Translations under genes and position numbers: made by a program
Shown: positions 100 to 17,417 of the stretch, piece after piece
Layout: the number at the start of each line of letters is the position of its first letter
How positions within the stretch are numbered: position 1 is the first letter of the stretch
Notes under the pieces: model-generated
The model's input: the letters and a program-made list of their open reading frames with translations, nothing else
Told to the model about the DNA's origin: nothing
Database searches by the model: none
Assembly: GCA_937919035.1 (NCBI GenBank)
Contig: CALFPI010000042.1
Location: 1 to 41,991, forward strand
Direction of reading: 5' to 3'
Length of the DNA stretch: 41,991 nt
From: an uncultured Gemmatimonadaceae bacterium
Lineage (GTDB): Bacteria > Latescibacterota > UBA2968 > UBA8231

Positions 100-207
100 G
101 CGGGCAGGTGCTGGGAGAAGAAGCGGAGCCAGTTGCCGTGCATGAAACGCGAGACGTCGTCGTCACTGCAGCCCCGGGCCGAGAGCAGGGGCCCAACCGA
201 GGGCTTC

Positions 208-1446
208 CTATGGGGCGGGGCCCACGATCAGAACCACATTGTGTCCGCCGAAACCAAAGGAGTTGCTCAACGCGATCCTCACTGTTGTCTGTCGAGCCTC
301 GTTTGGCACATAGTCCAGGTCGCAGCGCGGATCGGGAGTATGGTAGTTGATGGTTGGCGGGATCCATCCACTCCGTATCGCCTCAATGCACGCAAGGAGT
401 TCCACTGCGCCAGCCGCCCCCAAAAGATGTCCCGTCATTGATTTTGTGGAACTGACTGCTACGTCGTGGGCATGCGATCCAAGCGCTTCATGCAAGGCCA
501 TGCTCTCCACGGCATCCCCCATCGGCGTCGACGTCCCATGTGCATTTACGTAACTCACCGCAGCCGCAGGGAGTCCAGCATCTTCCAGCGCCGATCGGAC
601 CGCCCTTGCACTGCCCTCACCAGCGGGATGCATGTCTGTCATGTGGTAGGCATCCGATGCCAGGCCATACCCCAGCAGTTCCGAGAAAATCTCCGCGCCT
701 CGGCGCTTGGCATGCTCGTACTCCTCGAGAACTACGGCACCGGCTCCTTCGCCTAACACGAAGCCGCTTCGATCTGCATCGAAAGGCCTGCACGCGGCGG
801 CGGGCTCGCCATCGGGTCGCGCCAGCACCCGAGCTCGTTTGAATCCGGCCAGGCAAAGTGGCGTGATGGCTGCCTCGCTGCCGCCGGCGACAACCACATC
901 CACATCGCCATGCTGGATCTTCCTCATCGCCTCGCCAATGGCCTGAGAACCAGATGCGCAGGCACTGACCGTCGCATGATTTGCTCCCCTGATTCCGTGT
1001 TTGATCGAAATCATGCCAGCTGACATATCAGCAAGGGACATGGGTATCAGGAAGGGGCTTACACGCTCTGGCCCCTTCTCTAACAGTACAGCATGCTCAC
1101 GTTCGAGGGTTGCGATTCCACCCATAGCAGTCCCGAAAATCACACACGTTCTTCCCGGCTCGATGCTGTCGATGTCCAGGCCTGAATCGTTGATCGCTTG
1201 CGTGGCCACCTCAACGGCGAACTGCACGGTGCGATCCGTCCTCCTGACCTCCTTGGGCGAAAGGCAGAGGAGGGGATCAAATCCCTTCACTTCTCCCGCC
1301 GCCTGCTTGGGGTCATCACTGTCAATTCGAGTCAACGGGCCAATTCCGCTGCGGCCGTTGATCAGCGCTTCCCAGAACGTTTCTATGGAGTTCCCATTGG
1401 GGGCCAGTACGCCCCTTCCGGTCACCACGACGCGTCGCCGCACCAA
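208..1446 (-). CDS. fabF: Beta-ketoacyl-ACP synthase II (FabF)
   Basis: RRVVVTG N-terminus; catalytic Cys in TVSACASG; His in YVNAHGTST; His in KSMTGHLLGAAG; C-terminal SNSFGFGGHN; RPFDADRSGFVLGEGAG. Start moved to TTG 1446 (or GTG 1443) because GGAGGAG lies at 1459-1453. Confidence 0.92.
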   Translation of the reverse strand: MVRRRVVVTGRGVLAPNGNSIETFWEALINGRSGIGPLTRIDSDDPKQAAGEVKGFDPLLCLSPKEVRRTDRTVQFAVEVATQAINDSGLDIDSIEPGRTCVIFGTAMGGIATLEREHAVLLEKGPERVSPFLIPMSLADMSAGMISIKHGIRGANHATVSACASGSQAIGEAMRKIQHGDVDVVVAGGSEAAITPLCLAGFKRARVLARPDGEPAAACRPFDADRSGFVLGEGAGAVVLEEYEHAKRRGAEIFSELLGYGLASDAYHMTDMHPAGEGSARAVRSALEDAGLPAAAVSYVNAHGTSTPMGDAVESMALHEALGSHAHDVAVSSTKSMTGHLLGAAGAVELLACIEAIRSGWIPPTINYHTPDPRCDLDYVPNEARQTTVRIALSNSFGFGGHNVVLIVGPAP

Positions 1447-1545
1447 ATCAGACTCCTCCAGCCTCAATTTGCCCCTTCGCGGAGCAATCGCATGAACGTG
1501 TAGGGTGAAAACTTAACGTGCGCTCTGGTGCTGCCACGCAGCAAT

Positions 1546-3120
1546 CTACGGTATCCCGATTTCGTAGATCGAGATCGGGGCGTCAATGCCCTTGACCGAG
1601 ATCTCATCGATGTGGCTGACGTCGCCAATGTGAGGGGCTTTGGCGAGTCGCTCATTGCAGATGATCCGGCCGGGCTGCGCATGGTTCTTGGCGATCCGGA
1701 AGAACTGGTTGACGCCATCGCCGATCACCGTGTAATCAGTCTGAGTATCTTCCGAGCCCAACTCACCGACGATCGCATCGACAAGGCCGAGGGTTACTTT
1801 GACCTCGAATGCCGCTTCATGGCTCTTGCTCAATTCATTCACAGCGGCGAGGATCTCACGAGCACATGCCACGGAAGTTTCGGCTGCCTTGACATCCTTG
1901 ATCGGCGCTCCGAAGAGCGCCATCACCTCATCGCCGATGAACTTGTCGAGGGTTCCGCCGTAACCATCCTTGATGATCTTCCCGATGAGTGCCAGATAGC
2001 AATTGATTGCAGCGAAAACTTTGAGGGGGTCTTCCTGTGCATGAGCGTATTTGGTTGAACCAACGAGATCTGCCGACAGGATCACGACCTCTTCCCGTCG
2101 TGGATCAAGCCATTTGGGCTGGTTGAGCAGTACATCAATCGCGCCGGTCCCGACGTGTTTCGTGAACCGGGAGACCATCACCCGGATGTGTCTCTCCTTG
2201 ATCAGGGCCGTGTCCAAAAGCTCACCGGCCGACTGTACAAGATCAACGTGAGCCGGCGTGTAGCGGCTGTCTGAAACGAGTACGATGACGCCCCCTTTCT
2301 CACCCGCTCTGGTGGTCAAGGGGACTGCGATGACGCCAGCAATTTCGTCACCCCCTACACGGATTGGGCCATCCCGTGGCCCCCGTGACACAGGCGTGTC
2401 CTTGTGATCGCAATCTTGCGCAGCTTCCACGATCTCAAGTCTCGCCTGGTCATAGTTCTCGAGGATGATGCCCCCGGTGCTGTCCGTTGCCTGGAGGGCG
2501 TAGTCTTCTTCCTCGCCATGAAAGACGAAGCCTGCCATACTCGCCGTATCCTCGACCAACCGGTGAATCGAGAGTTCCAGGCAGCGTTGGGTGTTGTTGC
2601 CATGCGTATCGACGATGCCATCGATCTCACGGACCAACGTCCTTTCCCGCCTGGCGACATCCTCCTTGCACTTTGAGTAGATCACGGAGTCGAGAACATA
2701 GCTCGCCTCGCTGAGCAGAAACGGAAAGCAGCCATCTGGGGCACCGGACTGGATTCCTATGATCCCCAGATATGTTTCCCCTTTGTAGAGTCCTTTTACC
2801 AGGTAGGGAGCCTCGAAGAGACTCACCACTTTGGCTTCGTCCGTCACGCCCTCGCGTTCCGTTGCGCGGCACATCTGGGCGATCTCTTCGTTCATCGTTC
2901 GCCGCAGCAGCCCGTTCCTGTCTACGGCGACGACGGTGTCCTTGCCGAAGAAATCGCGGTAGCCGATAAACGCAGTTTCGCACGCGAATTCGCGAACCAG
3001 CCCCCTGAGGCACTGACGCAGAATGTCATAGAGATTCTCGTGCTCGTCGGCGCTGTCGTCCATCATGTGGACGATACGAAGCGCGTGAGCCAACGTGTCA
3101 CGATCGGGGACTGGGTTCAT
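1546..3120 (-). CDS. Soluble class III adenylate/guanylate cyclase with N-terminal GAF-like domain(s); ATP-type specificity residues
   Basis: Metal-binding Asp in ILSADLVGST and KFIGDEVMALFGAP; substrate-specifying Lys (DKF) and Asp (DYTVIGD); catalytic N and R in VNQFFR; VKG motif near the C-terminus. GAF-like signature VIAVPLTT..GVIVL upstream. No TM segments. AAGGA precedes ATG 3120. Confidence 0.87.
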   Translation of the reverse strand: MNPVPDRDTLAHALRIVHMMDDSADEHENLYDILRQCLRGLVREFACETAFIGYRDFFGKDTVVAVDRNGLLRRTMNEEIAQMCRATEREGVTDEAKVVSLFEAPYLVKGLYKGETYLGIIGIQSGAPDGCFPFLLSEASYVLDSVIYSKCKEDVARRERTLVREIDGIVDTHGNNTQRCLELSIHRLVEDTASMAGFVFHGEEEDYALQATDSTGGIILENYDQARLEIVEAAQDCDHKDTPVSRGPRDGPIRVGGDEIAGVIAVPLTTRAGEKGGVIVLVSDSRYTPAHVDLVQSAGELLDTALIKERHIRVMVSRFTKHVGTGAIDVLLNQPKWLDPRREEVVILSADLVGSTKYAHAQEDPLKVFAAINCYLALIGKIIKDGYGGTLDKFIGDEVMALFGAPIKDVKAAETSVACAREILAAVNELSKSHEAAFEVKVTLGLVDAIVGELGSEDTQTDYTVIGDGVNQFFRIAKNHAQPGRIICNERLAKAPHIGDVSHIDEISVKGIDAPISIYEIGIP

Positions 3121-3130
3121 TCACGTTCCT

Positions 3131-3159
3131 TGGGCAGCCGATCTGGGCAGCCGATCTGG
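3131..3159. repeat. Perfect 13-bp tandem duplication (TGGGCAGCCGATC x2 + TGG)
   Basis: Read directly: 3131-3143 is identical to 3144-3156. It fills most of the 39-bp gap between the channel stop and the cyclase start. Confidence 0.9.
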
Positions 3160-5310
3160 TCAGTAGAATACGGTCTGCGTGATAATCAGCAGGGCTCCGA
3201 GGATGATGGGCCAGAACGCCATCTTGGTGATCAGATTGTCGCGAAAGTCCAGCATTCTCAGACCCTGAACGCGGGTGAACAGGATCGAGTTGATCGACAC
3301 GCCAAGGAGCATCATGTAGATCACGAAGTAGAAATAGTCCAGGTAGATGATTTCGGACACCTGCAGCGAGTCGCGGACCTCGATCTGAGCGATGATGACG
3401 ACGAAAAAGAACGCTGCGCAGACTTCGAGAACGCCAAAGCCGCTGAATCCCAGCAACTCACCCGCCTGTTTGCTGGAGGTCATGACAACGGTAAATACCA
3501 GGATGGTGACCACGATGAGGGGCACGATGGTGGTGATGAACGGACTCAGAAACTCACGCTGAATGGTAAGGTTGAAATAGAGTTCCGGGCGGGTCTCGGC
3601 GACGCTCTGCTGACGCACACCAAAATTCGTGTTGTAGTGGTTGAAGCGATAGTCGAAGTAACTGCCTTTCAGCGACCAGTTCGGCATCACCAGGTGCTCC
3701 TCGAGTCCCGGCAGAAACTCAGGATTGAGGATCTCGTAGGAGGCAACATCCGGTACGAGGATCACGGGCCGGTTGAAGTCCGTGTGCCACATGCGCAGCC
3801 ACACCGTCTGCTGATCGAAGGGGTAGTGTCGATAGTCGAATTCTTCCCGCACGGAAACGCGGAAGTACCAGCCCACGACCTGGCGATCGCCGAGATCGAC
3901 GCGGTAGGCCTCCTGTATGTCGAGAACTTCGGCGTTGGGCTCGGTCTCGGCGAAGATCACGCCCTCAGATACGGGCGTGCCATCGGCATAGGTCCGATTG
4001 CTCTTGTCGTAGACCTGCCAGATATAACCACTGAGCATGACGTTGTAGGCGTCGCTGTATTGCATGTGCTGGATGAAGACGCCCGTGGGCACGTACACGA
4101 CCTCTTCCTTCATCTGGGCGGCGCGGACGCTCAATTGCTCCATGAATTGCGTGAGAACGGCCTGACTCTCGATGCGTAGCACCTCGTTTTCTCCGGCGTG
4201 CTGTGGTGGCCGGTTGAGAGCGCGCTGCCAGACGAACCAGATCCCGCCGAGAAAAACCAGGGCCGTGACGATGGACACGACCCAGTAACTCCGCTCTCCG
4301 CCCCGGAAGAATTGCGTCGCCGTCAGCATGGCCAGGATGACGAGGGAGCAACCCCCAAGCAGGATCCACACGAGGCGACGACTCTCGAGCTGGTACCCCT
4401 GGGAGTCTTTCGAATCAAGGTAATAGAGTAGAACCGTCCAGCCGCTGCTTGGGACCGACGCGTGGAACACCCGGTCCTGCCGTCCGGAGGCATCGGTGAC
4501 CTCCACCCAGCCCGGCTCGCCACCTTGGATACGCTCCCGCGCGGCCACGGCCACGGTGTGACGCAGTCTGCCATCCTCGGCCAATTTCTTCAGATCCTGA
4601 AGCAGGTTCGCCTGGTTGAGCACCTTTTCGGCGACCGGGTGTGAGATATAGGTGTGCTGCCTGGACGTGATGTAGCCGAAACCCTCTTCCCCTTCTGGCA
4701 GCGAAGAAGAGATGATCTGCTTCAGTTCGACCGGGGAGAGATTGATGGCAACGATCCCCATGGGGGCGCCTTCTGCGTCAAAGAAGGGCACACCATACTG
4801 AATGATGACGGCACCGCTCTCGTTACCAAAGAACGGTTCCGCCCAACCAGCGCCTTTGGCGACAGTGTTGTAGTACCAGGGGTTTATCGTGTAGTCGTAC
4901 TCGAGAAACACAAGTTTGTGACCGGCGTCGCCCCGATTGAGAAACAGGGGCGCGAAGTATTGGTGATCGTCGGTGAAACGATGCGGCTCGTAGGCCACAA
5001 AGAGCCCGTCGATGTAGTCCAGTCGCTTGACGTCCGCGCGCAAGCGATCCATCAAGGCCGTCGAGTCGAGCCGCCCCTGACTCAGATCCTCGGCGATCGC
5101 GTCGGCGATGGCCATCAACCCGCCCAATCGGGCATCGATGTCCTGGGAGAATTTCCCGCTCTCAGCCTGGTGCTTGTTGATCGCCTCGGTCTGGCGCTCA
5201 CGGCTTCTGTTGATGTGCTGATAGGAATAGTACCCGAGCCACACCAGATTGGCCAAGGCCAGGATTGCGAGGGTGAAGAATCCCCTGGTGAATCGGTCCC
5301 TTACGTGCAT
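3160..5310 (-). CDS. dCache-domain-fused pentameric ligand-gated ion channel (Pro-loop receptor) subunit
   Basis: N-terminal TM, then a dCache-like region (YDYTINPWYY..GWAEPFF..YGVPFF..GIVAINL..GYITSRQHTYISHP..SGWTV), two more TMs, and a beta-rich ectodomain with the pLGIC Pro-loop FDYRHYPFDQQ (YPFD at 3825-3814). Pre-M1 IQRE with the M1 Pro (TTIVPL), and four C-terminal TMs. Start set at ATG 5310 (GGAG upstream), overlapping the stop of the previous gene. Confidence 0.8.
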   Translation of the reverse strand: MHVRDRFTRGFFTLAILALANLVWLGYYSYQHINRSRERQTEAINKHQAESGKFSQDIDARLGGLMAIADAIAEDLSQGRLDSTALMDRLRADVKRLDYIDGLFVAYEPHRFTDDHQYFAPLFLNRGDAGHKLVFLEYDYTINPWYYNTVAKGAGWAEPFFGNESGAVIIQYGVPFFDAEGAPMGIVAINLSPVELKQIISSSLPEGEEGFGYITSRQHTYISHPVAEKVLNQANLLQDLKKLAEDGRLRHTVAVAARERIQGGEPGWVEVTDASGRQDRVFHASVPSSGWTVLLYYLDSKDSQGYQLESRRLVWILLGGCSLVILAMLTATQFFRGGERSYWVVSIVTALVFLGGIWFVWQRALNRPPQHAGENEVLRIESQAVLTQFMEQLSVRAAQMKEEVVYVPTGVFIQHMQYSDAYNVMLSGYIWQVYDKSNRTYADGTPVSEGVIFAETEPNAEVLDIQEAYRVDLGDRQVVGWYFRVSVREEFDYRHYPFDQQTVWLRMWHTDFNRPVILVPDVASYEILNPEFLPGLEEHLVMPNWSLKGSYFDYRFNHYNTNFGVRQQSVAETRPELYFNLTIQREFLSPFITTIVPLIVVTILVFTVVMTSSKQAGELLGFSGFGVLEVCAAFFFVVIIAQIEVRDSLQVSEIIYLDYFYFVIYMMLLGVSINSILFTRVQGLRMLDFRDNLITKMAFWPIILGALLIITQTVFY

Positions 5311-8300
5311 TCTTTCAACTCCAGTAGTGTGCCGTCCACGGCCTGCTTCAAGTTGGCCGCCGCCTCCGGATGTTCCACAAGGAAGCCCGTCATTACGTCT
5401 CGACCCAGACACAGCAGCCGTGCGGGACTCGCAGCTACGATGGCGAGCGTCGCCTCGCCGCTGCTGCCCCAGACCATCTCTCCCAGGAGCGAGCCCGCCT
5501 CATCGACCCGCGCCTGCTCTCCGATCGTTACCGTGCCATCCACCAGAAGATAGACGAATTGTACCCGCTCCCCGACCTGCAGAAGGCTGGCGCCTGGCGA
5601 CAGCCTGACTTCACGACACAGCAGGGCCAGATCCACCAGGCTTCCCTCGTCGACGCGCGCCAGAAGGGGCGCCGCTTTCAACGCCGCGATCTTGCCGGCG
5701 ATGGAGAGTGCGCCCTCGCCGGCGGCCTGCAAAATGTGAAAGGTTTCGTCGCGCATGGGTTCGGGCAGCAGTTCTAGCGCTTGGGTAGAGGCGACGGGAT
5801 CCGCCCGCTGCATGCCGAGGGCGGCTGCCTCGCGCAGCATGGGATTGGGATGGTACAGCTGAGCAATCTGCTCGTCGCAGATTCGACCATCCAGCAGGTT
5901 TGCGAGCGCTTCGAGGGCACACACCCGGCCCCATGGACCGATGGCGGAGTATTCGGCCAAGACAACGTTCTTGAGACGGTCCACCGGTTTCAGGCGCCTT
6001 TGGGGGCAGCGGGGCTCCAGCCGCTTGAGACGTTGATTCAGGGTGAGATCTTCCAGCAAGGGAAAGATCAACTCTCTGGTGTTTGCATCGAGCAGAGCGT
6101 CGAGCAACTCCAGAGCATAGACGCGACCATCGGGATCGCCGCTGCGAAAGCTGTCTCGTACCAGTTCCACCTGTGGGGCCTCGTAGATTAACGTCAGCAA
6201 CAGGAAAATGCGTTCGCGTCGTTGATCGACGTCGGCACCCAGGGCCTTGAGCACGGCCTGTGTGCCATCGGTTTCCGACAGGTCGAGGATCGAGGCCATA
6301 CTCCACGCCGCCCGCGATGTCGTCTCCTCGATGCGCTGCCGGACATACGCCTGCTCTTCGCCACTGGCGGCCTGATAGCCATTGGCCCGCAATCCACCCA
6401 GGACTGCCAGTTCCACGCCTGCATCCACTGCGTTCATCCGTGGTGCCAGTAGGTCGATGGCCCCCTGGCCCCCGATGGCTGCACACGAGCGGACCACACG
6501 CGCCTGCACGGCGGGGCCCGTCGCTGAGTCTGCGAGCAGCCCGAGCAGGATGGGGAAGGAGGCGACGCCTTGTGCCAGCAGGACTTCGGCGGCAACCCAG
6601 TGCGTATCCGGCGCCTTCAACTGCTCCGCCATGACGCCGAGCAAGTGCTCCGAGTTGACGCGACCTGCAGCGAGCAGGGCAAAACGACGCACGCCCGCAT
6701 CTTCGTCCCGCAGAAGTTCCTTGAGCAACTGTTGCTCTTCGACCGCCAAGCCGTCTGCCCCGGCCCCTGTCCCCAACAATCGCGCCGCGAGGGAGCGGTC
6801 GTTTGTGTCGCGGGAACCAGCCAGAATTGCAACACCACGGCCTGGCCTCTCGAACATCGCTGTCTCGAGCCGTGCCAGCGTCTGCCGACCGGCCTGCTTC
6901 AGCTCAGGATCGGACACCCCATCGAGGCAGCGTCGCGTCTCCCCCTCCAGTTCCGTCCACCGCAGGCTACCTATGACACGCAGAGCAGCCAGCCGTGCCG
7001 CCGGCGCGGGATTGGCGAGGTAAGCCTTGAGCGCCGTACCAAGAGAGGCCGGCGCTGCCCGCGTGAGCCAGTCGAGGGCGGCCCCGACGCGGCCAGGATC
7101 GACGACGCGCAGATCAGCCTGAAGTAGAGCGACGCCCTGCGATGGTCGTACGTCCGTATCCCCGGATGCGCCCCGCGTCCGTGCTGTCAGACTGCCAAGC
7201 AGCGAGGCGCGATACTCCCGATGGAGGAGGACGGCGACGGCTGCCCAGGTACTGGCGATCAGAAACACGGCGACGAGCACCACCTCGGAGGATCCGAGCC
7301 AGCTGATCGGCCAGAGGATGAGACCCACGAAGGCCACTGCCTTCTGCTGCACGAGCCCCTCTATGCTGGTCTGAACCGCGAGTCGATCCTCAGCGGCGAG
7401 GGGTTGGTAGAGGACGTTGAAGGATGGGTCGTGAAAGGACTTCATGGCGACGCGTTCGATGATCTTGCTGAGCACGACGAGCAGAAATATGGCCTGGCTG
7501 CTGTCGGCAAGACTCAGGTCCGCCAACGCCACCAGGACCATGATCACGCAGAGCATCAGGGGCAGAGCCAACAGGCCGAGACGAATGCCGTACTCCTGCA
7601 GCAGGCGGCCGGATAGGACTGTCTTTACCAGAAGCTCCACGACACGGATGGTGCCGTACAGTGAACTGATGAAGCGCGCCAGGAAGGTGCGGTCCTCGAA
7701 GCGTATGCGCAGTTGCCCCAGGAAGGCGTAGTCGATGAAGTAAAAGCCGAAAACGACCAGAACCGCCAGCAGGCAGATGAGTCTCAGGTAGGGGTCGCTG
7801 AGCAAGTCCCGCAGGCCGACCTGGCGTCGCGCCTGGGACGGACTGGAGACAAGCCGCTGGGCGAAGGTCCGGTTGACGACGCACAGCAGCCAGCAGGCTC
7901 CCCCCAGAGCGGCAGCGGCAATCAACAGCAGATCGGTGACCCGCGGCAGCACGCCGACCACGAGCGGCACCGAGAAGAAACCGATGATCGAAGAGATGAC
8001 GTCCCCAGAACTGATCAGGCCGAAGAGACGCTTGCTCTGCTGCAGGTCGAGGAGGCGGCCGACGAGTGTCCGGAAAACGAAATAGACAAGGGCGATGAAG
8101 GGGCCTATGAAGGCGAACATGGCGAAGGTGAGCCAGCGCGCCGGGAGCATCAGGAAACCGAGCCAGAACAGAACCACCAGGACCAGGGGCAAGGCCAGGA
8201 CGCGAATGATGAGACTGGTGAAAGGAATTCGGCCCTGCATCCGCGCCAGCCAGGCGCCGATGAGATACCCAGCCAGTCCGGTGGCCATGTAGCCCTGCGG

Positions 8301-8459
8301 CAGGTAGTCGACACCGAACTCGGCGAGGAACGAAGCGTTTGCCAGGGAGATGTAATAGGCCTGGAAAATGCCGATGAGGAAGGAATAACCCGACAGCAGC
8401 GCCACAGTTCGGCCCTCGCCTGGCAGGATGCGGAGGGCGCCGGCGAGGGCACGGAGCAT
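5301..8459 (-). CDS. TLC/Npt-like nucleotide-transporter (MFS) domain fused to HEAT repeats and a C-terminal cyclic-nucleotide-binding-like domain
   Basis: About 420 aa of ~12 hydrophobic helices with the QSKRLFGLISSG motif and LYQPL. HEAT-like repeats follow (LLRDEDAGVRRFALLAAG, LYHPNPMLREAAALG). C-terminal cNMP fold (LSPGASLLQVGE..VYLLVDGTV..LLGEM). Likely start ATG 8459. Confidence 0.75.
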   Translation of the reverse strand: MLRALAGALRILPGEGRTVALLSGYSFLIGIFQAYYISLANASFLAEFGVDYLPQGYMATGLAGYLIGAWLARMQGRIPFTSLIIRVLALPLVLVVLFWLGFLMLPARWLTFAMFAFIGPFIALVYFVFRTLVGRLLDLQQSKRLFGLISSGDVISSIIGFFSVPLVVGVLPRVTDLLLIAAAALGGACWLLCVVNRTFAQRLVSSPSQARRQVGLRDLLSDPYLRLICLLAVLVVFGFYFIDYAFLGQLRIRFEDRTFLARFISSLYGTIRVVELLVKTVLSGRLLQEYGIRLGLLALPLMLCVIMVLVALADLSLADSSQAIFLLVVLSKIIERVAMKSFHDPSFNVLYQPLAAEDRLAVQTSIEGLVQQKAVAFVGLILWPISWLGSSEVVLVAVFLIASTWAAVAVLLHREYRASLLGSLTARTRGASGDTDVRPSQGVALLQADLRVVDPGRVGAALDWLTRAAPASLGTALKAYLANPAPAARLAALRVIGSLRWTELEGETRRCLDGVSDPELKQAGRQTLARLETAMFERPGRGVAILAGSRDTNDRSLAARLLGTGAGADGLAVEEQQLLKELLRDEDAGVRRFALLAAGRVNSEHLLGVMAEQLKAPDTHWVAAEVLLAQGVASFPILLGLLADSATGPAVQARVVRSCAAIGGQGAIDLLAPRMNAVDAGVELAVLGGLRANGYQAASGEEQAYVRQRIEETTSRAAWSMASILDLSETDGTQAVLKALGADVDQRRERIFLLLTLIYEAPQVELVRDSFRSGDPDGRVYALELLDALLDANTRELIFPLLEDLTLNQRLKRLEPRCPQRRLKPVDRLKNVVLAEYSAIGPWGRVCALEALANLLDGRICDEQIAQLYHPNPMLREAAALGMQRADPVASTQALELLPEPMRDETFHILQAAGEGALSIAGKIAALKAAPLLARVDEGSLVDLALLCREVRLSPGASLLQVGERVQFVYLLVDGTVTIGEQARVDEAGSLLGEMVWGSSGEATLAIVAASPARLLCLGRDVMTGFLVEHPEAAANLKQAVDGTLLELKECT

Positions 8460-8464
8460 GGACG

Positions 8465-11113
8465 CTACCAATCAGCATACAGGAGGCGCAACATGACCTC
8501 TCTGCCTTTCTGCGGCAGCCGGGATACGTGAATCTCACCCTCGGCACTGCGCACACCGGGGTGGTAGTAGTCAGTATCCAGAGCATTGTCGACATGGAGC
8601 TGGAGGGAGACCCCGGGGATGCCGCCGCGCACGGTCAGATTACCGCCGATGATTGTGTAGGCATCGATCTGGTCGAGGGGATTGTCGGGCACTGTCGTGC
8701 CGCTGCCGGTCCGGCGATCGCCGACATAGCGGAGATAGCAGGCAAGATCGAGACGGGAACTCAGATTGACGAAGCCACCAATATTGACCCGCTGGCTGGC
8801 GATGTCGCCGATGCGCCGACGAACGGGACGACCGCTTTCATCGAGCAGGATGTTCCCCGTCGCGTCCTTGACCTCCACATTCTGTGGATCGGTATACGAG
8901 TAGTTTGCATACAGGGAATGCCTGTCCGCCTTCAGCGACAGTCCGCCCTGCAGACCGCGGATCCGCAGTGCGCCGATCGGCAGATTCTGTGTCGTCGTTG
9001 TGCCATCTTCGAGTACCACGGCGGTGGCGCCGATGATATCGCTGTAATCGGCCCGGTAGCCGACGAGATCGACAAACAGATTGTCGGTGATCTGCCAACC
9101 CGCGCTCAGGTCGGCATTTTTCACTCGCTCCGGTTCCAGGTCGGGGCTCGTCACCTGACGACTGGGCGAGGTTGAGAAGCGGGCTGAGTTTGATGGGGCC
9201 TTGAAGGCCTCCGCGTAAATCACCTTGAAGATGAAATCACGCGGGTGGTAGACGGCAGCGACGCGGGGCGTGAACACGGTGCCGAAACCGAGAGTTTCGC
9301 GGACTCGATTGTTGTCGACTCGTCCGCCGAGTGTCAGGGAGAGATCGGCGCGTGGCGAGTACGTGCCTTGCGCATAGGCTCCGACATTGCGCTGGTCGTA
9401 ATTGTTCAGTTCTGCGAATGGAAACCCTGTCTCGGATGGGTTTGGCGCCACCGACACGTTGTACTGGCCCTGAATGTCACTGCTACGGAGCTCGACCCCA
9501 CCGAGGAGCCGAAGCTCGGCGGTAGGGGCGTAGAACATCTTGGCTTCGGAACGCATCTCCTTCGACTGACGGAAGAAGTAACGCGTCGACCAACCGGCGG
9601 GCGTATCAATGAGCAGATCCGCCAGACCGAGACGTCCCTCCCCGGAGTAACTTTGATGGCTGACGATCTGATTGTCGTTGTCGAGGGCGTGGATCTTGTA
9701 ACGGGTGAAAATTTCGACATCGACAGCTTCCGAGATGGCCATCTCGTACTTTGCGTAGAGAAACGTATGCCGCGGAATCCAGCTGCCGCCGTTGCGCGAA
9801 GAGCCTTCGCGGTCGTCCGGGAACCAGCCGATACTGCCTTCGTCGCGGCGCCAGGTCTGCATGCCCAGTTGCAGATCGCCCAGACGCAGCTTGCTTGACA
9901 CCGACCAGTCGTCGGTGTCGTTGGCAAAGCCGACGCTCCGCCCTTGCACCAACGCTTGCAGAGCCTCGGCGTCGTGGTCGGCGGCGCTCTGCGCGCCCAC
10001 GTCGCTGATTTCGATGGCAGTAGCCTGACCGGAGGCGTTCCGTACGACGAGGGTGTACGGATGATCGGTCCCCTGAGGGTTCTGTTCCAGGAATCGCTCC
10101 GCCCACGGCGCACCATCCGGGGCCAAACCCCGAATCGCTAACTTCTCTTGATAGAATTCGGCATCATGGGGCAGATAGTCCCAGTCCGGAAAGGCCGACA
10201 GGTCCGCCTCGTCAGAGTGGTAGACACGGACGCTGACGGAGATGGACACCTTCTTGTGGCGCGCCGCGCCTGTGACATCAACATAACGGCTCACATACGT
10301 GCCACTGCCTGACTGCACGCGCAGACCCAGGCGCCGGCCGGGTTCGATCAGGTCGTCGCCATTGGCTGTAATGACATTGATGACCCCGGCGTAGGCATTG
10401 GGCCCATACATCGTCGAAGCCGGGCCGTAAATGACCTCGATCCGCTTGATGTTACTTAGCGGGTACTGCCGCGAGATGTTGGCAAAATTGCTCCACAGGT
10501 CGTTTTCTTCCACATCGTCGTAGAGAAACAATGTGCGGTCCGTGCCGTTGGCCCGATATCCTCGTTGGTAAATATTGGAGTAGAGCACGCCGTTGCCGCG
10601 GGAGATATCGAACCCGGGCAGGTCGTGCAGCACCGCTTCCAGGTCCGCATACCCCCGCCGGCGGATCTCCTCATTCGACAACACGAGCACCGTCGCCGGA
10701 GTGAGTCGCACGTCCTCGCTATTCTTTGACACCGAGGTCACCTCGGTCGCCGATCGACGTCGGCGGACCTCGTCAATGATCCGTGCGAACCGAGGGGGAT
10801 CCCGCAAGGTGGCCTCGAAATCAGGTTTCAGCGCGAGCAACCCATCGACGGCGCCCAGCGCCCCCTGAGGGTCATCGCCGGCGATACCGGCCAGGGCCAG
10901 CAGGCGGTATGCCTCCACGCGCTCCCCTCTCCCGGTACCCGCCTCGTGCAGGCAGGGCTCCACTGCGTCCACAACGGCGTCAAAGTGACCCGTTCTGTAG
11001 AGCTTCTCGGCGTCGTCGAGGGCGATACTGCAGCCGCTCTGCGCATCAGCCACCGAGAGGAAAGGGATCTGTGCTGCCCACAGTAGACCAATCACTGCGG
11101 CAGGGCGCCTCAT
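8465..11113 (-). CDS. TonB-dependent outer-membrane receptor with N-terminal TPR-like extension
   Basis: Signal peptide ending ADA/Q; plug motifs TVLVLSNEEIRRRG..LHDLPG and IKRIEVIYGPASTMYGPNAYAGVINVIT; barrel motifs LEPERVKN and VDNALDTDYY; aromatic C-terminal residue (W). ATGA overlap with the upstream gene. Confidence 0.92.
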   Translation of the reverse strand: MRRPAAVIGLLWAAQIPFLSVADAQSGCSIALDDAEKLYRTGHFDAVVDAVEPCLHEAGTGRGERVEAYRLLALAGIAGDDPQGALGAVDGLLALKPDFEATLRDPPRFARIIDEVRRRRSATEVTSVSKNSEDVRLTPATVLVLSNEEIRRRGYADLEAVLHDLPGFDISRGNGVLYSNIYQRGYRANGTDRTLFLYDDVEENDLWSNFANISRQYPLSNIKRIEVIYGPASTMYGPNAYAGVINVITANGDDLIEPGRRLGLRVQSGSGTYVSRYVDVTGAARHKKVSISVSVRVYHSDEADLSAFPDWDYLPHDAEFYQEKLAIRGLAPDGAPWAERFLEQNPQGTDHPYTLVVRNASGQATAIEISDVGAQSAADHDAEALQALVQGRSVGFANDTDDWSVSSKLRLGDLQLGMQTWRRDEGSIGWFPDDREGSSRNGGSWIPRHTFLYAKYEMAISEAVDVEIFTRYKIHALDNDNQIVSHQSYSGEGRLGLADLLIDTPAGWSTRYFFRQSKEMRSEAKMFYAPTAELRLLGGVELRSSDIQGQYNVSVAPNPSETGFPFAELNNYDQRNVGAYAQGTYSPRADLSLTLGGRVDNNRVRETLGFGTVFTPRVAAVYHPRDFIFKVIYAEAFKAPSNSARFSTSPSRQVTSPDLEPERVKNADLSAGWQITDNLFVDLVGYRADYSDIIGATAVVLEDGTTTTQNLPIGALRIRGLQGGLSLKADRHSLYANYSYTDPQNVEVKDATGNILLDESGRPVRRRIGDIASQRVNIGGFVNLSSRLDLACYLRYVGDRRTGSGTTVPDNPLDQIDAYTIIGGNLTVRGGIPGVSLQLHVDNALDTDYYHPGVRSAEGEIHVSRLPQKGREVMLRLLYADW

Positions 11114-14100
11114 CGCGGACCGCCTTGATCGGGACCCGGAAGATCGGGCCGGATTTTTTCGTATGGGATGCCTTCACCGACGAATCGCTCCCACTCTCTC
11201 ATCGTCAGGTTGCGGACCACGCAGGGCAGCAGTGCTTCGGCAAGATCGGTGGTTTGCGTCGTCCACAGGTGGACGTTCCGATCCATCCCGCCGGAGGCGA
11301 TCCGCCGCCCATCGGAATTGATGGCGACGGACCACACCCAGTTGTCATGCCCCAACAGGACGGGCTCCTGCTCCGGCGCCTGCACATTCCACAGGCGCAC
11401 CGTTCCGTCAAGGCTGGCCGTCGTCAACAGCCGGCTGTCGGGAGCGAAGACGAGCGAGCGAACAGCTGATTGATGGCCAATCAGCACCTGGGGGGCAGCA
11501 GACAGGTCCTTCCGATCCCACAGCAGCAGATCACCGTTGGCCGCCCCCGCCACCAGCCAGCGGCCATCGGCGCTGAAGGCGAGGGAGCGAATCGCGGCCT
11601 GATAGGGGGAAGGACTCGGAGAAACCGGCGTGCCGTCGGGCCGCCACAAACGAATCGCACCATCCTGGCTGCCGGTAGCCAACAAGCCGTCATCGGCAGC
11701 GATCGCCACAGCGTCGACGCTGCTGCCCAGTCGCCAATTTGCCAGGGACGTCGCCGTATCCCCCTGCAGGTGCCAGCAGCTGATGCGACCGTCGAGCCAG
11801 GACGCGACGAGCTGATCCCCGGTGGCTGAGAAGTTGATCGATGTCACGGGGACCGGGGACGGATCGCCGGACGCCGTCACCAGTACGGGTGCGGAGTCCG
11901 AGTCGAGTCGAGCCAATTCCACGCGGCCCTGGTCGGTGCCCGTCGCCAACAGTCCGTCGGCACGGATCGCCAGGCTGCGCACAGCACCTTGTCGCCGCCA
12001 TACCGACGTCGCTTTGCCCAGCTGCAGATCCCAGGCTCGAATCGCTCCGTCGTCGCCGCCGGAGAGCAATTGGTCGCTGTCGGGCCGGAAGGCGACGGCA
12101 CGCACGGCGTCATCATGGCCGCGCAGGACTCGTCGGGAATCACTCTCGAAAGGCATGAGGGCAAGGCGTAACGCCTGGTGGATGTCGGGGTCCTGCGTGA
12201 TTGCGCTGTGTCTGTCATGGAGAAGGTACGCTTCCATGGCGAGCAATGCGGCGAGTTGGTCCTGGCCTTCGCGATCATGGATCTTGACCGCCTGGATGGC
12301 GAGGGTACGACTCACCGAAAGCAAGTGCAGTCGATTCGCCTGGCGCCGATGTTCCACCGCGATCTGGCGCTGCGCTTCAGCGCGCTCGCGTTCCTGGTCG
12401 GCGAGTTCCTGTTGCTCTTCGGCAATCTGGCGCTGTGCCTCTGCGCGCTCACGTTCCTGGTTGGCGAACTTCCTCTGCTCTTCGGCGAGCAGCCGCTGGC
12501 TGTCGGCGCGCTGGCGCTCCTCCACGGCCACTTCCTGCTGCTGCTGAGCCAGCAGTCGCTGCTCCTGCGCCCGTTCTCTTTCGGCCTCCGCCGCCTGTTT
12601 CTGCTCAACGGCGAGTTGTCGCTGAGTCTCGGCCTCCTTGCGCTCCTCGTCGGCCAGCTCCCGCTGGCTGAATGCATCCTTCTTGGATTCTTCGGCTTTG
12701 AAATAGAGATTCATTCCGATCACGAGGCCGGTGAGGAAGATGAGGGAAACACCGCCCATCAACAGCGCCAGCCGGCGGGTCCGCCGCAGGCGCCTCTGGC
12801 GCCGTTCCTCTTCCTTGGCGAGGCGAAAATCGCGCTCCTCCACGCTGTGATCGAGGAAGGTCATGGCACGCTCAAAAGCCGGGTCATGCCGACGCCCCCA
12901 GGCCGCCGTCGGACGATACTGCCGACGCCATTCCAGAGCCAGCTCGAGATCAGGATCCTGGTAGAGGCCCGCTCTGCCTTCCTGGTAGAGGGCGGCAGTA
13001 TTGGCGATGCGGGTATACAAGTGCGCGGATTGGGTCTCCTCCTCCATCCAGCTTCGTGCTCGCGGCCACTGACGAAGCAGACTCTCGTGGGGTATGTCGA
13101 GCACGGTGCCGCCCTGCAAGGGCACCTCGGGCGATGGCATGACAAACCACCGTCCCGCCATTCTGAAGTGCTCCACCACCGCCTTGACCGGGTCTGGCTC
13201 CAGCCCGGCTATCGCAGCAATCTCGTCGAGGTCTGTAGGTCGCCGGCCATCACGAAAGATGCCTGCCCCCCCGGCCAGTGATCTGAACAGGAGCCGGGCG
13301 ATCCGGCGGGACTCGTCGTCCGCCAATTCCGCATAGACTTCTTCGGCGTGCTGGGAGAGTGCCTCGGAGACCGTGCCGACAGCCTCGTAGTGATCGATGT
13401 CGAGGGGTTCGCCTCGCTGGTGGTTGGCAGCCCAGTAGTCCCAGGTCCGCATCAGCACGTGTTGCAGGAGGGGCAACCGGTCGGCGTCATCGCAGATGTC
13501 GGCCAACAGTCGTTCCACGAGTTGAGGGCTGATCGCCGACCCCCCCAGGACGGCGGGTTCTTCGATCGCCGCACGCAACTGGTCGCGCGTCATGCGCGGC
13601 ACGAGGTAGTCGACTTCGTTGATCGCTTCGGTCAGGCCGTCGAGGGCTGTGCAGTGGCCGATGAACTCGGCGCGCATGGTGAGGACCACGTAGATCGGGG
13701 CCTCCCGTTGACGCATGGCTGTCAGCAACGCGTCGACGAACCGTGCCGCCTCAGCCGCATCTGCCTCGTCCTTTCCCTGCAGCCGGAAGAGTTCTTCGAA
13801 CTGGTCGACGACGAGCAGCAGATTCGGCGTCCCCGCTCCGGCCTTGACCAGATCGGCGATCCCGGACGTGCCGGCACGCAGGCCTTCCACATCCCCGTTG
13901 CCTACGCCTGCATCTTTCAACGCCGCACCCAGGCTGTCGAACACCCGCTTTCCGGGGGTGAAGATGACGCGTTGCCAAGTGCTGCCGGCGGCGGCGAGGC
14001 GACCTTGGTAGAGGCAGGGGACCAGGCCGGCTCGCACCAGTGACGACTTGCCACTGCCGGAGGGGCCCAGGACCACGAGGAAGCGTTTCGCTTCCAGCAC

Positions 14101-14214
14101 TTCCAGCAGCTGGTCCACCTGCTCCTGGCGACCGAAGAACAGGTGATGCTGCTCGAAGTCGAAGGGACGCAGCCCGGGAAAGGGGTTCACGGGCGCTGTC
14201 TCCATGGGGATCAT
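11110..14214 (-). CDS. nSTAND1-type NTPase - TM - long coiled coil - 7-bladed WD40 protein
   Basis: NPFPGLRPF..FFGR start; Walker A GPSGSGKSS; Walker B LLVVDQFEELF; LPLLQHVL and HESLLRQW motifs. TM LALLMGGVSLIFLTGLVIGMNLYF after a basic RRQRRLRRTRR stretch; ~120 aa A/E/Q/R heptad region; seven WD40 repeats. Confidence 0.9.
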   Translation of the reverse strand: MIPMETAPVNPFPGLRPFDFEQHHLFFGRQEQVDQLLEVLEAKRFLVVLGPSGSGKSSLVRAGLVPCLYQGRLAAAGSTWQRVIFTPGKRVFDSLGAALKDAGVGNGDVEGLRAGTSGIADLVKAGAGTPNLLLVVDQFEELFRLQGKDEADAAEAARFVDALLTAMRQREAPIYVVLTMRAEFIGHCTALDGLTEAINEVDYLVPRMTRDQLRAAIEEPAVLGGSAISPQLVERLLADICDDADRLPLLQHVLMRTWDYWAANHQRGEPLDIDHYEAVGTVSEALSQHAEEVYAELADDESRRIARLLFRSLAGGAGIFRDGRRPTDLDEIAAIAGLEPDPVKAVVEHFRMAGRWFVMPSPEVPLQGGTVLDIPHESLLRQWPRARSWMEEETQSAHLYTRIANTAALYQEGRAGLYQDPDLELALEWRRQYRPTAAWGRRHDPAFERAMTFLDHSVEERDFRLAKEEERRQRRLRRTRRLALLMGGVSLIFLTGLVIGMNLYFKAEESKKDAFSQRELADEERKEAETQRQLAVEQKQAAEAERERAQEQRLLAQQQQEVAVEERQRADSQRLLAEEQRKFANQERERAEAQRQIAEEQQELADQERERAEAQRQIAVEHRRQANRLHLLSVSRTLAIQAVKIHDREGQDQLAALLAMEAYLLHDRHSAITQDPDIHQALRLALMPFESDSRRVLRGHDDAVRAVAFRPDSDQLLSGGDDGAIRAWDLQLGKATSVWRRQGAVRSLAIRADGLLATGTDQGRVELARLDSDSAPVLVTASGDPSPVPVTSINFSATGDQLVASWLDGRISCWHLQGDTATSLANWRLGSSVDAVAIAADDGLLATGSQDGAIRLWRPDGTPVSPSPSPYQAAIRSLAFSADGRWLVAGAANGDLLLWDRKDLSAAPQVLIGHQSAVRSLVFAPDSRLLTTASLDGTVRLWNVQAPEQEPVLLGHDNWVWSVAINSDGRRIASGGMDRNVHLWTTQTTDLAEALLPCVVRNLTMREWERFVGEGIPYEKIRPDLPGPDQGGPR
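12362..12487. repeat. Degenerate 63-bp (21-aa) tandem repeat within the coiled coil of the STAND-WD40 gene
   Basis: Units begin ATCTGGCGCTG at 12362 and 12425. They encode AEEQRKFANQERERAEAQRQI / AEEQQELADQERERAEAQRQI on the minus strand, with more degenerate units toward ~12700. Confidence 0.8.
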
Positions 14215-15836: not shown

Positions 15837-15924
15837 AGCACCCGGATTGGACGGACATTCCTCCTGAATGGGGTAGAACCAGCTGAGCGGCGCCCTCTCT
15901 ACCCGAGCCTCACAACGCTGGCCT

Positions 15925-17385: not shown

Positions 17386-17417
17386 CGCCTACAGGTGCTG
17401 TCGCGCGACAGAAGTGT

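Follow-up and report, generated by a model that had tools for sequence, protein, structure and literature searches.

MCP-N- and Cache-fused ART-LGICs were predicted by Tasneem, Iyer, Jakobsson and Aravind (Genome Biol 2004/2005; PMC549065), whose available text places a double sensor (MCP-N plus Cache, now dCache_1) N-terminal to the LBD and the four-TM channel. According to the same text, accessory domains were proposed to sense or concentrate ligands beforehand, with binding then taking place at the domain of the channel itself, and in pLGICs a basic residue before M1 pairs with the loop Asp (PMC549065). DeCLIC, another pLGIC from bacteria, carries a large N-terminal extension in the periplasm, which accounts for about half of its mass and changes gating kinetics only (PMC9897478, PMC12664993). 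A 2025 paper describes it as the sole pLGIC with a partly characterised N-terminal domain (PMC12664993). On the sensor side, dCache_1 chemoreceptors and sensor kinases, among them PctA and the Methanosarcina kinase sensors 3li8 and 3lib, carry a double-Cache fold between two membrane helices, and their output is a kinase or an MCP signalling domain.

Here we report on a gene for a dCache-fused pLGIC-like subunit of 716 aa, located at 3160..5310 on the minus strand of the window, that is, the whole stretch of 41,991 nucleotides analysed (contig CALFPI010000042.1). Judged by architecture, the predicted protein belongs to the kind foreseen in 2004, the MCP-N/Cache-fused LGICs, and its membership is new; the likeness of the window family to the Tasneem proteins of Methanosarcina, Cytophaga and Microbulbifer is one of architecture only. 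The sequence-only reading of this DNA had stated that Cache-fused forms were known bioinformatically, and the available text of the 2004 description agrees (PMC549065). As far as that text goes, the domain order is the same, an acidic Pro/Cys-loop residue and a basic pre-M1 residue are common to both, and the distribution is likewise sporadic and apparently shaped by lateral transfer. However, the extra domains of the earlier class are placed there after a signal peptide and before the channel module, and 'hairpin' has 0 occurrences in the available text, whereas here two membrane helices divide the sensor from the ectodomain, and the second of them is conserved. DeCLIC differs in another way, since its addition consists of two jelly-roll lobes continuous with the ectodomain and contains no membrane helices, whereas the addition in the window protein is a dCache fold between membrane helices. 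Finally, in contrast to the dCache_1 chemoreceptors and kinases, the output is here a channel module.

Gene, topology and sensor domain

The 716-aa frame runs from an ATG at 5310 to a stop codon at 3160-3162; in the ORF analysis a longer GTG frame reaches 5412. The ATG is the position where close homologues begin in the alignment, a GGAG lies 10-13 nt upstream of it, and the upstream gene ends within the channel frame, the two overlapping by 10 nt. Metatranscriptome contigs with pieces of the gene were found in three of three runs, a weak observation given that DNA carry-over is possible; stretches of the window left uncovered in these runs carry no meaning.

Seven hydrophobic segments were detected at aa ~10-29, 314-335, 342-362, 589-611, 622-645, 654-678 and 695-715 (Kyte-Doolittle, 19-residue window). 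The resulting order is TM1, dCache, a TM2-TM3 hairpin, a periplasmic domain of ~225 aa with a YPFD motif, and four TMs. All parts lie on the minus strand. TM1 (aa 10-29, 5224..5283) is an N-terminal membrane anchor with three K/R among the nine preceding residues, and it is followed by the sensor (aa ~30-313, 4372..5223) and by the hairpin (aa 314-335 and 342-362, 4225..4371), which has a cytoplasmic turn of six residues. The pLGIC-type periplasmic ectodomain and its linker (aa 363-588, 3547..4224), assigned by the ectodomain-only hhalign comparison, contain the Pro-loop motif YPFD (aa 496-499, 3814..3825), which aligns with the FPFD/YPFD of canonical pLGICs and GLIC. The C-terminal membrane domain M1-M4 (aa 589-716, 3163..3546) has four helices by hydropathy and a 16-residue M3-M4 loop. 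Lys and Arg make up 3/9, 2/6, 1/8 and 3/16 of the residues in the short loops assigned to the cytoplasm, and 0/7 in the periplasmic M2-M3 loop. Because these loop charges fit, we place the N-terminus inside and the Cache domain, the ectodomain and the C-terminus outside. The seven segments and the loop charges thus bear out the topology proposed in the sequence-only reading (TM, dCache, TM, TM, YPFD ectodomain, four TMs), including a periplasmic location of both the Cache domain and the channel ectodomain. As predicted from its sequence, the protein is a seven-helix inner-membrane fusion of a chemoreceptor-type Cache sensor and a strongly diverged relative of ion channels of the neurotransmitter-receptor type.

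The Pfam model dCache_1 matches aa 137-294 with an E-value of 9.9e-10 and 38.8 bits, which is below the Pfam cut-off of 45 bits, and it is present in all 10 of 10 close homologues (best E 5.3e-20). Moreover, a family profile of 128 sequences matches solved dCache sensor domains with an E-value of 1.7e-29 (3li8). The domain is bracketed by the helices at aa 10-29 and 314-335 and is extracytoplasmic by charge distribution. In amino-acid-sensing dCache_1AA domains, the AA_motif consists of Y121, R126, W128, Y144 and D173 in PctA numbering, and the D173N change in PctA abolishes amino-acid binding (PMC8915833). The positions aligned to PctA are Y138, N143, W145, F160 and N190, so that the aromatic scaffold of the distal pocket is kept as Y138/W145, but the motif itself is broken, with N for R126, F for Y144 and N for D173.

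Relationship of the C-terminal half to pentameric channels

The Pfam models PF02931 and PF02932 matched 0/10 close members (E<=10), 0/41 representatives (E<=1e-3) and 0/72 precomputed entries, and no match to either was found across the whole genome at E<=1. Matches of the single sequence to solved pLGICs were weak (E 0.016). We then have the profile comparisons, for which 41 canonical bacterial pLGICs with PF02931 and PF02932 served as the comparison set; this set matches GLIC structures at 3.5e-70. With hhalign, the family profile aligned to it at 96.85% (E 2.1e-10) over 284 columns, from beta1 to M4, and a profile of the C-terminal part only at 97.87% (E 5.7e-13) over 285 columns. When the alignment was cut, the full length gave 97.4% and the ectodomain alone 96.0% (E 4.1e-9, 135 columns), against 0.3% for a reversed-template control; M1-M4 alone was not significant (2.2%, E 0.022; reversed control E 0.038). 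A search of the PDB with the C-terminal profile (hmmsearch) returned solely GLIC and GLIC chimeras among the 60 matches listed, with a best E-value of 2.5e-4, and the HMMER alignment to GLIC is collinear from the Pro-loop through the end of M4. Among language-model look-alikes of the C-terminal half of one homologue, PF02931/PF02932 were the sole Pfam families, which we take as a lead only. A FastTree tree of 178 rows gave just the trivial split of canonical pLGICs versus the Cache-channel family. Together, the hhalign values of 96.9-97.9% sustain the Cys-loop/pLGIC assignment made for this half from the letters alone, and the profile comparisons support its reading as a pLGIC-superfamily module.

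Like GLIC and ELIC, the family lacks Cys-loop cysteines and has a homologous ectodomain, the (F/Y)PFD Pro-loop, an Arg ahead of M1 and a Pro within it, and four suitably spaced C-terminal hydrophobic segments with a short M3-M4 loop. However, identity in the profile alignment is ~19%, the Pfam models fail on the family, and the window protein adds a sensor of 284 aa and three helices at its N-terminus. Divergence also affects M2 and the M2-M3 loop, whose register is uncertain: the placement of M2 differs by three residues between the hhalign and HMMER alignments, the canonical M2-M3 loop Pro finds no counterpart, hhalign sets an 8-residue insertion there, and small or acidic residues of the Cache-channel family align with the usual 9' Leu. 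A reading of pore residues and selectivity from M2 was dropped because of this three-residue difference between the two registers.

At E<=1e-3 the family numbers 1572 or more representative clusters, mostly of ~700 aa, and dCache was detected in 24 of the 41 representatives scanned. Across 128 aligned relatives, the Pro-loop has P in 128/128, D in 117/128 and a preceding Y/F in 128/128; the variants are YPFD (73), YPLD (18), FPFD (15), FPLD (9) and others (13). Because of this conservation, YPFD is not a chance tetrapeptide. The pre-M1 residue R585, the aligned counterpart of an Arg that is invariant before M1 in the canonical set, is R in 117/128 and K in 7/128, the M1 Pro is found in 121/128 and R646 in 127/128, and E/D658, Y665 and P701 are each present in 128/128. 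Information content is 2.3-2.5 bits in the channel part versus ~1.5 in the sensor (ectodomain 2.37, Cache 1.48), and conservation along the protein peaks in M2 (2.54 bits) and M3 (2.55 bits). It is worth noting that TM3 reaches 1.76 bits, versus 1.30 for TM1 and 1.36 for TM2. The pattern of 1+2+4 helices recurs among relatives, and Cache-less relatives exist as 5-TM and 7-TM short forms that retain the TM before the ectodomain. TM3 is a conserved pre-ectodomain helix, constant in the family including the relatives without Cache. Members are found in cultured Vibrio and Acaryochloris strains, including Vibrio sp. THAF191d and Acaryochloris marina (pREB2), and there is also one Cytophagaceae member. 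The source names of the relatives are only 'hypothetical' or 'cache domain-containing', much as had been forecast for automated annotation of this gene.

Gene neighbourhood and natural deletion in a sister genome

The channel gene lies within a tight run of genes on the same strand, with overlaps of 4-10 nt and gaps of 39-88 nt, which starts 89 bp from a divergent FAAL-ACP/PKS-NRPS operon and contains an ABC transporter of the cyclic-peptide exporter family TIGR01194 (329 bits, cut-off 286). The start of the channel gene is overlapped by a gene (5301..8471, minus strand) for a 1056-aa NTT(MFS/TLC-like)-HEAT-cNBD membrane transporter with HEAT_2 and cNMP_binding matches; it has 10-12 hydrophobic segments in aa 1-415, and its orthologues match MFS_1 and TLC. 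The NTT-HEAT-cNBD architecture has been described, and HEAT repeats are protein-interaction modules (PMC5381601). Upstream on the same strand are a TonB-dependent outer-membrane receptor with plug and barrel (8465..11113), whose nearest solved chains are BtuB, Cir and PhuR in a match confined to the plug region, and an nSTAND1 NTPase-WD40 protein (11110..14214; Pfam nSTAND1 1.4e-98 plus WD40). Downstream is a class III nucleotidyl cyclase (1546..3120, minus strand; Guanylate_cyc 1.6e-7).

Conservation of these neighbours was followed in five informative close loci. As the L019 and L002 peptides are identical over the compared stretch, the close loci represent about four lineages, several of them kin. 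The NTT-HEAT-cNBD gene adjoins the channel in four of the five (L002, L003, L019, L020), orthologues of the TonB-dependent receptor (51-61% identity) are beside it in three (L002, L003, L020), and the WD40 part of the STAND protein is present in L002 and L003. NTT-HEAT-cNBD paralogues in four kin genomes (25-28% identity) were not beside TonB-dependent receptor, STAND or channel homologues. Instead of clusters, more distant relatives of the channel adjoin genes for two-partner secretion, for a bestrophin-like protein or for a solute-binding protein. The cyclase is not conserved beside the relatives and is absent from L002 and L003; it matches solved bacterial adenylate cyclases at 7.4e-19 and PADLOC PycC at 1.3e-16. 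PADLOC returned nothing for the channel, the TonB-dependent receptor or the transporter, and the mad3/mad8 matches of the STAND protein are weak and limited to the P-loop region. A Pycsar-type defence role of the cyclase and the cNMP-binding membrane protein is possible but was not adopted, because relatives of the channel lack the cyclase as a conserved neighbour and the solved structures closest to this enzyme are those of ordinary class III adenylate cyclases. Rfam gave nothing within the window, hence no riboswitch hint at the substrate of the receptor. Neither the promoter nor the terminator scan exceeded the counts from shuffled sequence; the strongest promoter-like site, a consensus match only, is at 17447-17418 on the minus strand, upstream of the gene run.

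In the sister genome G159, a block of 12,054 bp (1795..13848) with the cyclase, channel, NTT-HEAT-cNBD, TonB-dependent receptor and STAND-WD40 genes is missing. By blastn, window positions 193-1794 match L045 9842-11464 and positions 13849-16412 match L045 11467-14029. The deletion leaves stumps of the cyclase (aa 441-523) and of the STAND protein (aa 4-122), and blastn and the junction alignment indicate that the five genes were lost as one unit. G159 retains the exporter (95% aa identity), FAAL-ACP (92%) and the PKS without the channel block. A neighbouring BGC had been pointed out from the sequence, and a hybrid PKS-NRPS cluster indeed begins at 17474 on the opposite strand, 12 kb from the channel gene. 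At a further locus (L018), a channel homologue of 58% identity is followed on its strand, after 865 bp, by an NRPS of 2814 aa; this NRPS is 35-38% identical to that of the window, a generic level. The further proposal that the BGC product or a fragment of it is the ligand is not established, given the 12-kb gap, the other conserved partners and the occurrence of the cluster without the channel in G159.

Proposed function and alternative explanations

We give a probability of roughly three in four to the reading of this protein as a Cache-sensor-coupled, divergent pentameric channel in a conserved uptake gene module, its conjectural steps included. In the order seen in the sequence, an N-terminal anchor helix precedes a periplasmic double-Cache sensor of small molecules, the tight TM2-TM3 hairpin brings the chain back to the periplasm, and the GLIC-type beta-rich ectodomain and four membrane helices come next. 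Five subunits would presumably form a ring with M2 lining the pore. A periplasmic small molecule, probably other than an amino acid, would bind the Cache domain, and the signal may be relayed to the channel through the hairpin, the conserved pre-ectodomain helix or ectodomain contacts, with altered ion flux or membrane potential as the expected outcome. In this lineage, the channel would work in a conserved module with the TonB-dependent receptor and the NTT-HEAT-cNBD transporter, and the likeliest ligand would therefore be the substrate of that uptake route, whichever compound it is. Among several candidate ligands is the PKS-NRPS product.

The role of the Cache domain could be more modest, with the ectodomain keeping its own inter-subunit ligand site as the real gate and the Cache being a modulatory or ligand-concentrating accessory. 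We regard this as possible, though on the unlikely side. It fits the ectodomain being the best conserved extracellular part (2.37 versus 1.48 bits), the short 5-TM and 7-TM relatives without Cache, the ligand-concentrating accessory domains proposed in the available text of Tasneem et al. (PMC549065) and the effect of the DeCLIC N-terminal domain on gating kinetics only (PMC9897478, PMC12664993). However, most of the 150 relatives are listed at ~700 aa and dCache occurs in 24/41 of those scanned, which points to a primary role, and the link by a membrane hairpin resembles classical transmembrane signalling of Cache receptors more than a loose tethered lobe. It seems to us doubtful that the adjacent PKS-NRPS cluster supplies the ligand, as its product or a fragment thereof, with the protein as a producer-side sensor of its own metabolite. 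The tight same-strand run starting 89 bp from the divergent operon, the cyclic-peptide exporter and TonB-dependent receptor within it, the L018 homologue (58%) 865 bp upstream of an NRPS and a position beside the cluster inherited from the ancestor of two or more species in the genus all speak for it. Against this, G159 holds the exporter, FAAL-ACP and PKS yet deleted the channel block, the L018 NRPS is just 35-38% identical to that of the window, no cluster gene is found in L002, L003, L019 and L020 (short contigs of 3.6-12 kb), and the distant relatives keep other company than clusters.

Equally doubtful in our view is a pLGIC-derived but non-conducting membrane receptor or scaffold that would control, through protein contacts, either the co-encoded NTT-HEAT-cNBD transporter or cNMP signalling. 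M2 and M3 are the most conserved segments and carry strictly conserved polar positions (R646, H/Q642, E/D658, N674), as expected of a working pore or gate, and relatives occur in many contexts without the transporter. Nevertheless, the membrane domain alone has diverged past significance in hhalign, the canonical M2-M3 loop Pro and 9' Leu were not recovered, M2 is Phe-rich, and the gene overlaps by 10 nt that of a transporter whose HEAT repeats are protein-interaction modules (PMC5381601). The pLGIC resemblance might also be due to chance or convergence, an unrelated periplasmic beta-rich domain and four helices with an incidental YPFD, for which the unmatched Pfam models and the weak single-sequence matches (E 0.016) could be adduced. 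We consider this highly improbable, since the profile-profile match runs collinearly through the entire module, persists when the membrane part is cut away and is lost on reversal, four separate hallmark positions are conserved, and 60/60 PDB matches listed for the C-terminal profile are of GLIC type.

A more specific version of the Cache-sensor-coupled channel is speculative and, on present evidence, improbable as a whole: the Cache-channel may be the periplasmic sensing arm of the conserved uptake module. The TonB-dependent receptor would admit a specific compound to the periplasm, the dCache would detect it and the seven-helix pentameric channel would open, and an ion or potential signal together with the cyclic nucleotide of the adjacent cyclase would tune the cNMP-binding NTT-HEAT transporter. 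The compound might be a nucleotide-like cofactor or a lipopeptide of the neighbouring PKS-NRPS. If true, the import of nutrients or metabolites would be wired to a bacterial 'ionotropic receptor', and the channel would be a pLGIC gated from within the membrane by a classical transmembrane sensor.

The Cache-channel family is large, with at least 1572 representative clusters, and is unrecognised by Pfam and by NCBI naming. The partnership with the TonB-dependent receptor and the NTT-HEAT-cNBD transporter, together with the natural 12-kb deletion in a sister species, narrows the search for the native ligand and cautions against presuming that it is the BGC product. The membrane hairpin and the conserved extra helix would provide an explicit physical link from a well-understood sensor type to a channel, and could reveal how a transmembrane sensor signal gates a pentameric channel, a question that is experimentally approachable because members occur in cultured Vibrio and Acaryochloris strains.

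A probable divergent pLGIC module fused to a dCache sensor

The channel is encoded at 3160-5310 (minus strand) by an ATG-initiated ORF of 716 codons. A longer ORF from a GTG at 5412 can be drawn; the ATG lies at the start position of ten close homologues (40-57% identity), has a GGAG 10-13 nt to its 5' side and shares 10 nt with the end of the upstream gene. The gene is single-copy in the genome (87% complete, 782 contigs), of which the window is the entire contig C42. Within the 39 nt that separate the channel stop codon from the cyclase gene lies a perfect 13-nt tandem duplication (3131-3156); one DNA run (X1) has a single copy of the unit.

A 19-residue hydropathy scan detected seven hydrophobic segments (aa 10-29, 314-335, 342-362, 589-611, 622-645, 654-678 and 695-715). 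The short loops that are cytoplasmic in the predicted topology are rich in K/R (3/9, 2/6, 1/8 and 3/16), and the M2-M3 loop has none (0/7). In this topology, aa 30-313 and aa 363-588 are periplasmic, and the segments and loop counts thus bear out the sequence-only reading, which had placed both the Cache domain and the channel ectodomain in the periplasm.

The assignment of the C-terminal half required profile comparisons. With Pfam, no family other than Cache-type ones was matched by 41 family representatives; PF02931 and PF02932 were detected in 0/10 close members with a threshold as loose as E<=10, and are missing from the precomputed domains of 72 relatives. NCBIfam gave no match, and a search with the single sequence yielded only weak similarity to beta subunits of nicotinic receptors (E 0.016, aa 573-674). 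Bona fide bacterial pLGICs were therefore sought with PF02931 in 168 genomes of the window's phylum, and two were found. One is a frameshifted gene in the kin genome G096, whose relatives in protein collections carry PF02931 and PF02932; this canonical GLIC-like gene lies in two overlapping frames (G096:C265, 1396-1914 and 1701-2438), an apparent frameshift or assembly error. An alignment of 41 relatives of this pLGIC, which matches GLIC structures at 3.5e-70, served as the canonical reference.

Against this reference, hhalign scored an alignment of 128 family sequences at 96.85% (E 2.1e-10); the 284 matched columns span the module from the first strand of the ectodomain through M4. The profile-profile score of a 26-sequence alignment of the C-terminal part only was 97.87% (E 5.7e-13, 285 columns). 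In separate cuts, the full module scored 97.4%, as against 0.3% for a reversed template, and the ectodomain alone scored 96.0% (E 4.1e-9, 135 columns). For the four helices by themselves the score was 2.2% (E 0.022), no better than the reversed control (E 0.038), so the evidence for homology lies in the ectodomain; the membrane part is collinear with that of pLGICs, its own homology not being demonstrable in isolation. A PDB search with the 26-sequence alignment returned 71 sequences at E<=1, and all 60 matches listed were GLIC or GLIC chimeras (best E 2.5e-4; GLIC itself 0.003, with an alignment that spans the Pro-loop through M4). As a lead only, the look-alikes that a language model retrieves for the C-terminal half of a homologue have no Pfam assignment apart from PF02931 or PF02932. 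The earlier proposal of a Cys-loop-family channel is supported by these profile matches, and a Cache-fused, very divergent subunit of the pLGIC superfamily is a well-supported reading of the protein. We infer that such subunits would form a gated pentameric pore.

The N-terminal periplasmic part is assigned by sequence to dCache_1. The Pfam model matches the channel protein at E 9.9e-10 (38.8 bits, below the 45-bit cut-off) and is detected in 10/10 close homologues; moreover, the 128-sequence family profile matches solved dCache sensor domains at E 1.7e-29. In PctA, the amino-acid-binding motif of dCache_1 is described as Y121, R126, W128, Y144 and D173, and the D173N change as abolishing amino-acid binding (PMC8915833, sections available). 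The aligned channel residues are Y138, N143, W145, F160 and N190. Tyrosine and tryptophan are thus kept, whereas N143 stands for R126, F160 for Y144 and N190 for D173. Because the motif is altered, including a change of the D173N type, the ligand of this Cache domain is probably not an amino acid.

Family conservation and distribution

The hallmarks of the superfamily are conserved among the 128 relatives. The Pro-loop proline and the Y/F preceding it are invariant (128/128 each) and the loop Asp is present in 117; the pre-M1 position is Arg in 117 and Lys in 7 more, and the M1 Pro is kept in 121. The pair of loop acid and pre-M1 base is a universal feature according to the available portions of Tasneem et al. 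(PMC549065). Identity to canonical pLGICs is ∼19% in the profile alignment, and hhalign places an 8-residue insertion at the M2-M3 loop site that holds a conserved Pro in canonical channels. M2 (2.54 bits) and M3 (2.55 bits) are the most conserved segments of the channel, and the membrane part has family-specific, strictly conserved polar residues (H/Q642 in 127, R646 in 127, E/D658 in 128 and Y665 in 128 of 128) together with P701 (128/128). The placement of M2 differs by three residues between HMMER and hhalign, and we therefore make no claim on pore-lining residues or selectivity.

By a crude hydropathy count, 54 of 87 relatives with a strict (Y/F/W)PFD have three helices on the N-terminal side of the motif and four on its C-terminal side, the others mostly being short or having one missed helix. 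Some short forms have seven helices without Cache, and some have five helices with a single pre-ectodomain helix. This helix (aa 342-362) is better conserved (1.76 bits) than TM1 (1.30) or TM2 (1.36), and it is a constant of the family, since the five-helix forms keep it.

When aa 391-716 were used in a full scan of 1.84 billion representatives, 1572 proteins matched at E<=1e-3, of which 928 reached E<=1e-30; among the 150 matches listed, most are ∼700 aa long with the matched region C-terminal. Named members come from Latescibacterota, Cytophagaceae, Nitrospinota-type, Chloroflexota, Acidobacteriota, Pseudomonadota, Thiomargarita, Desulfoluna and Thermomicrobiales records, and all are called 'hypothetical' or 'Cache domain-containing' in the databases. 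The family also occurs in cultured strains, among them Vibrio sp. THAF191d and its relatives (692-aa ORF, seven helices, FPFD); plasmid pREB2 of Acaryochloris marina encodes a 486-aa short form annotated as hypothetical. Matches were obtained in 7 of 168 genomes of the window's phylum (5 including the channel part), in none of 9 other genomes of the same genus and in 13 of 401 sampled genomes of another phylum, and the distribution is sporadic. At one locus (L026, 8914-9210), the match is limited to the last ∼96 residues of a homologue with a stop codon just inside, and this may be a gene remnant.

Seawater, marine and aquatic metagenomes contain nearly identical DNA (13 runs from five studies, each with at least 0.2 of the sampled words). 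Metatranscriptome contigs from three runs of two studies contain 149-291-nt pieces of the channel gene (4079-4369, 3229-3416 and 5063-5211) as well as pieces from other parts of the gene run; RNA libraries may contain DNA, so this is a weak hint of transcription.

Gene neighbourhood, a natural deletion and the ligand

The channel belongs to a tight minus-strand run that comprises genes for a Band 7 protein (15925-17385), an ABC exporter (14211-15836; TIGR01194 'cyclic peptide export ABC transporter', above cut-off), an nSTAND1 NTPase-WD40 protein (11110-14214), a TonB-dependent receptor (8465-11113), a 1056-aa membrane protein with HEAT repeats and a cNMP-binding domain (5301-8471), the channel, a class III cyclase (1546-3120) and FabF (208-1467). 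The 1056-aa protein is an NTT(MFS/TLC-like)-HEAT-cNBD fusion whose orthologues match MFS_1 and TLC. This architecture was described by Major et al. 2017 (PMC5381601); in the text available of that paper 'TonB' occurs 0 times and a pairing with a TonB-dependent receptor and a channel is not mentioned. In the nSTAND1-WD40 protein, a single membrane helix (aa 482-500) is predicted between NTPase and propeller. The cyclase, two genes from the cNMP-binding membrane protein, has a 340-aa N-terminal part without Pfam match; it scores higher with PADLOC Pycsar cyclase models (58.7 bits) than with Pfam Guanylate_cyc (31.6 bits). Among solved structures, the best matches to it are ordinary adenylate cyclases of bacteria. 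Divergent from the run and 89 bp away, a FAAL-ACP/PKS/NRPS hybrid cluster (17474-41989, plus strand) reaches the contig end; it encodes the FAAL-ACP, a 3173-aa PKS (KS-AT-MT-KR-ACP-KS-KR-ACP), a 1255-aa KS-KR-ACP protein and an NRPS of at least 2713 aa (C-A-PCP, C, A).

In the sister genome G159 (same genus, 96% complete), a single contig (G159:C79) carries the syntenic region, in the order FabF (86% amino-acid identity), last 83 cyclase codons, first ∼120 STAND codons, exporter (95%), Band 7 (73%), FAAL-ACP (92%) and PKS. Window positions 193-1794 and 13849-16412 abut in G159 DNA (aligned junction, 11464/11467 of its locus, L045). Thus, 12,054 bp (1795-13848) are deleted there, comprising most of the cyclase, the channel, the NTT-HEAT-cNBD transporter, the TonB-dependent receptor and most of the STAND gene. 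Gene stumps persist on both sides, which makes a loss in G159 a more parsimonious explanation than an insertion here. It follows that the five block genes behave as one dispensable unit and that the position of the block by the PKS-NRPS cluster is older than the divergence of the two species; in G159, cluster and exporter persist without the block.

This bears on the ligand, for which the sequence-only reading had nominated the cluster product or a fragment of it from the operon context. Such a ligand is possible and is not favoured over one tied to the receptor/transporter pair, since G159 keeps cluster and exporter without the channel. Among the five loci of >50% identity with usable flanks, an NTT-HEAT(-cNBD) gene adjoins the channel homologue in four (L002, L003, L019 and L020) and a TonB-dependent receptor in three (L002, L003 and L020); L019 and L002 are one lineage, their peptides being identical over the compared part. 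The WD40 protein is found beside the receptor in L002 and L003, gene order and strands in L003 not being the same as elsewhere, and the cyclase is not conserved beside the homologues at the five loci. All of these genes are absent from the fifth locus, L018 (58% identity); a 2814-aa NRPS gene (12926-21370, plus strand) lies 865 bp downstream of its channel homologue on the same strand, and this NRPS is only 35-38% identical to that of the window. It has an N-terminal TubC-type docking domain, an internal sulfotransferase and a terminal thioesterase.

Other partners accompany distant relatives. In a clade of another phylum (L067, L071 and L073; also L068, L070, L072 and L074), the Cache-channel is followed on the same strand by genes for a UPF0114 membrane protein, a ShlB/FhaC-type TpsB transporter and a giant TPS-domain exoprotein, the latter two a two-partner secretion pair, and one distant locus has a bestrophin-like gene. 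In Vibrio sp. THAF191d (L077, 2477-6728), the homologue overlaps a 207-aa gene, which overlaps a gene for a 518-aa SBP_bac_3 solute-binding protein, an arrangement that echoes the PBP-II/LGIC operons noted in 2004.

Relation to earlier predictions

Tasneem, Iyer, Jakobsson and Aravind described, in the parts of PMC549065 available, prokaryotic LGICs of Methanosarcina, Cytophaga and Microbulbifer fused to MCP-N and Cache, and proposed a chemoreceptor role for them; the word 'hairpin' is absent from the text. According to the accessible sections of a 2025 paper (PMC12664993), the N-terminal domains of such channels are little known and DeCLIC is the sole partly characterised case, with which those of PMC9897478 concur; the available portion of PMC4795631 holds no discussion of these domains that we could find. 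We found nothing further on point in the later literature on Cache-fused pLGICs. The channel is a further member of the kind predicted in 2004, matched to those proteins by their described architecture. To that prediction are added a topology of seven helices in which the pre-ectodomain helix is conserved, the conserved partnership with a receptor and a transporter, and a natural deletion.
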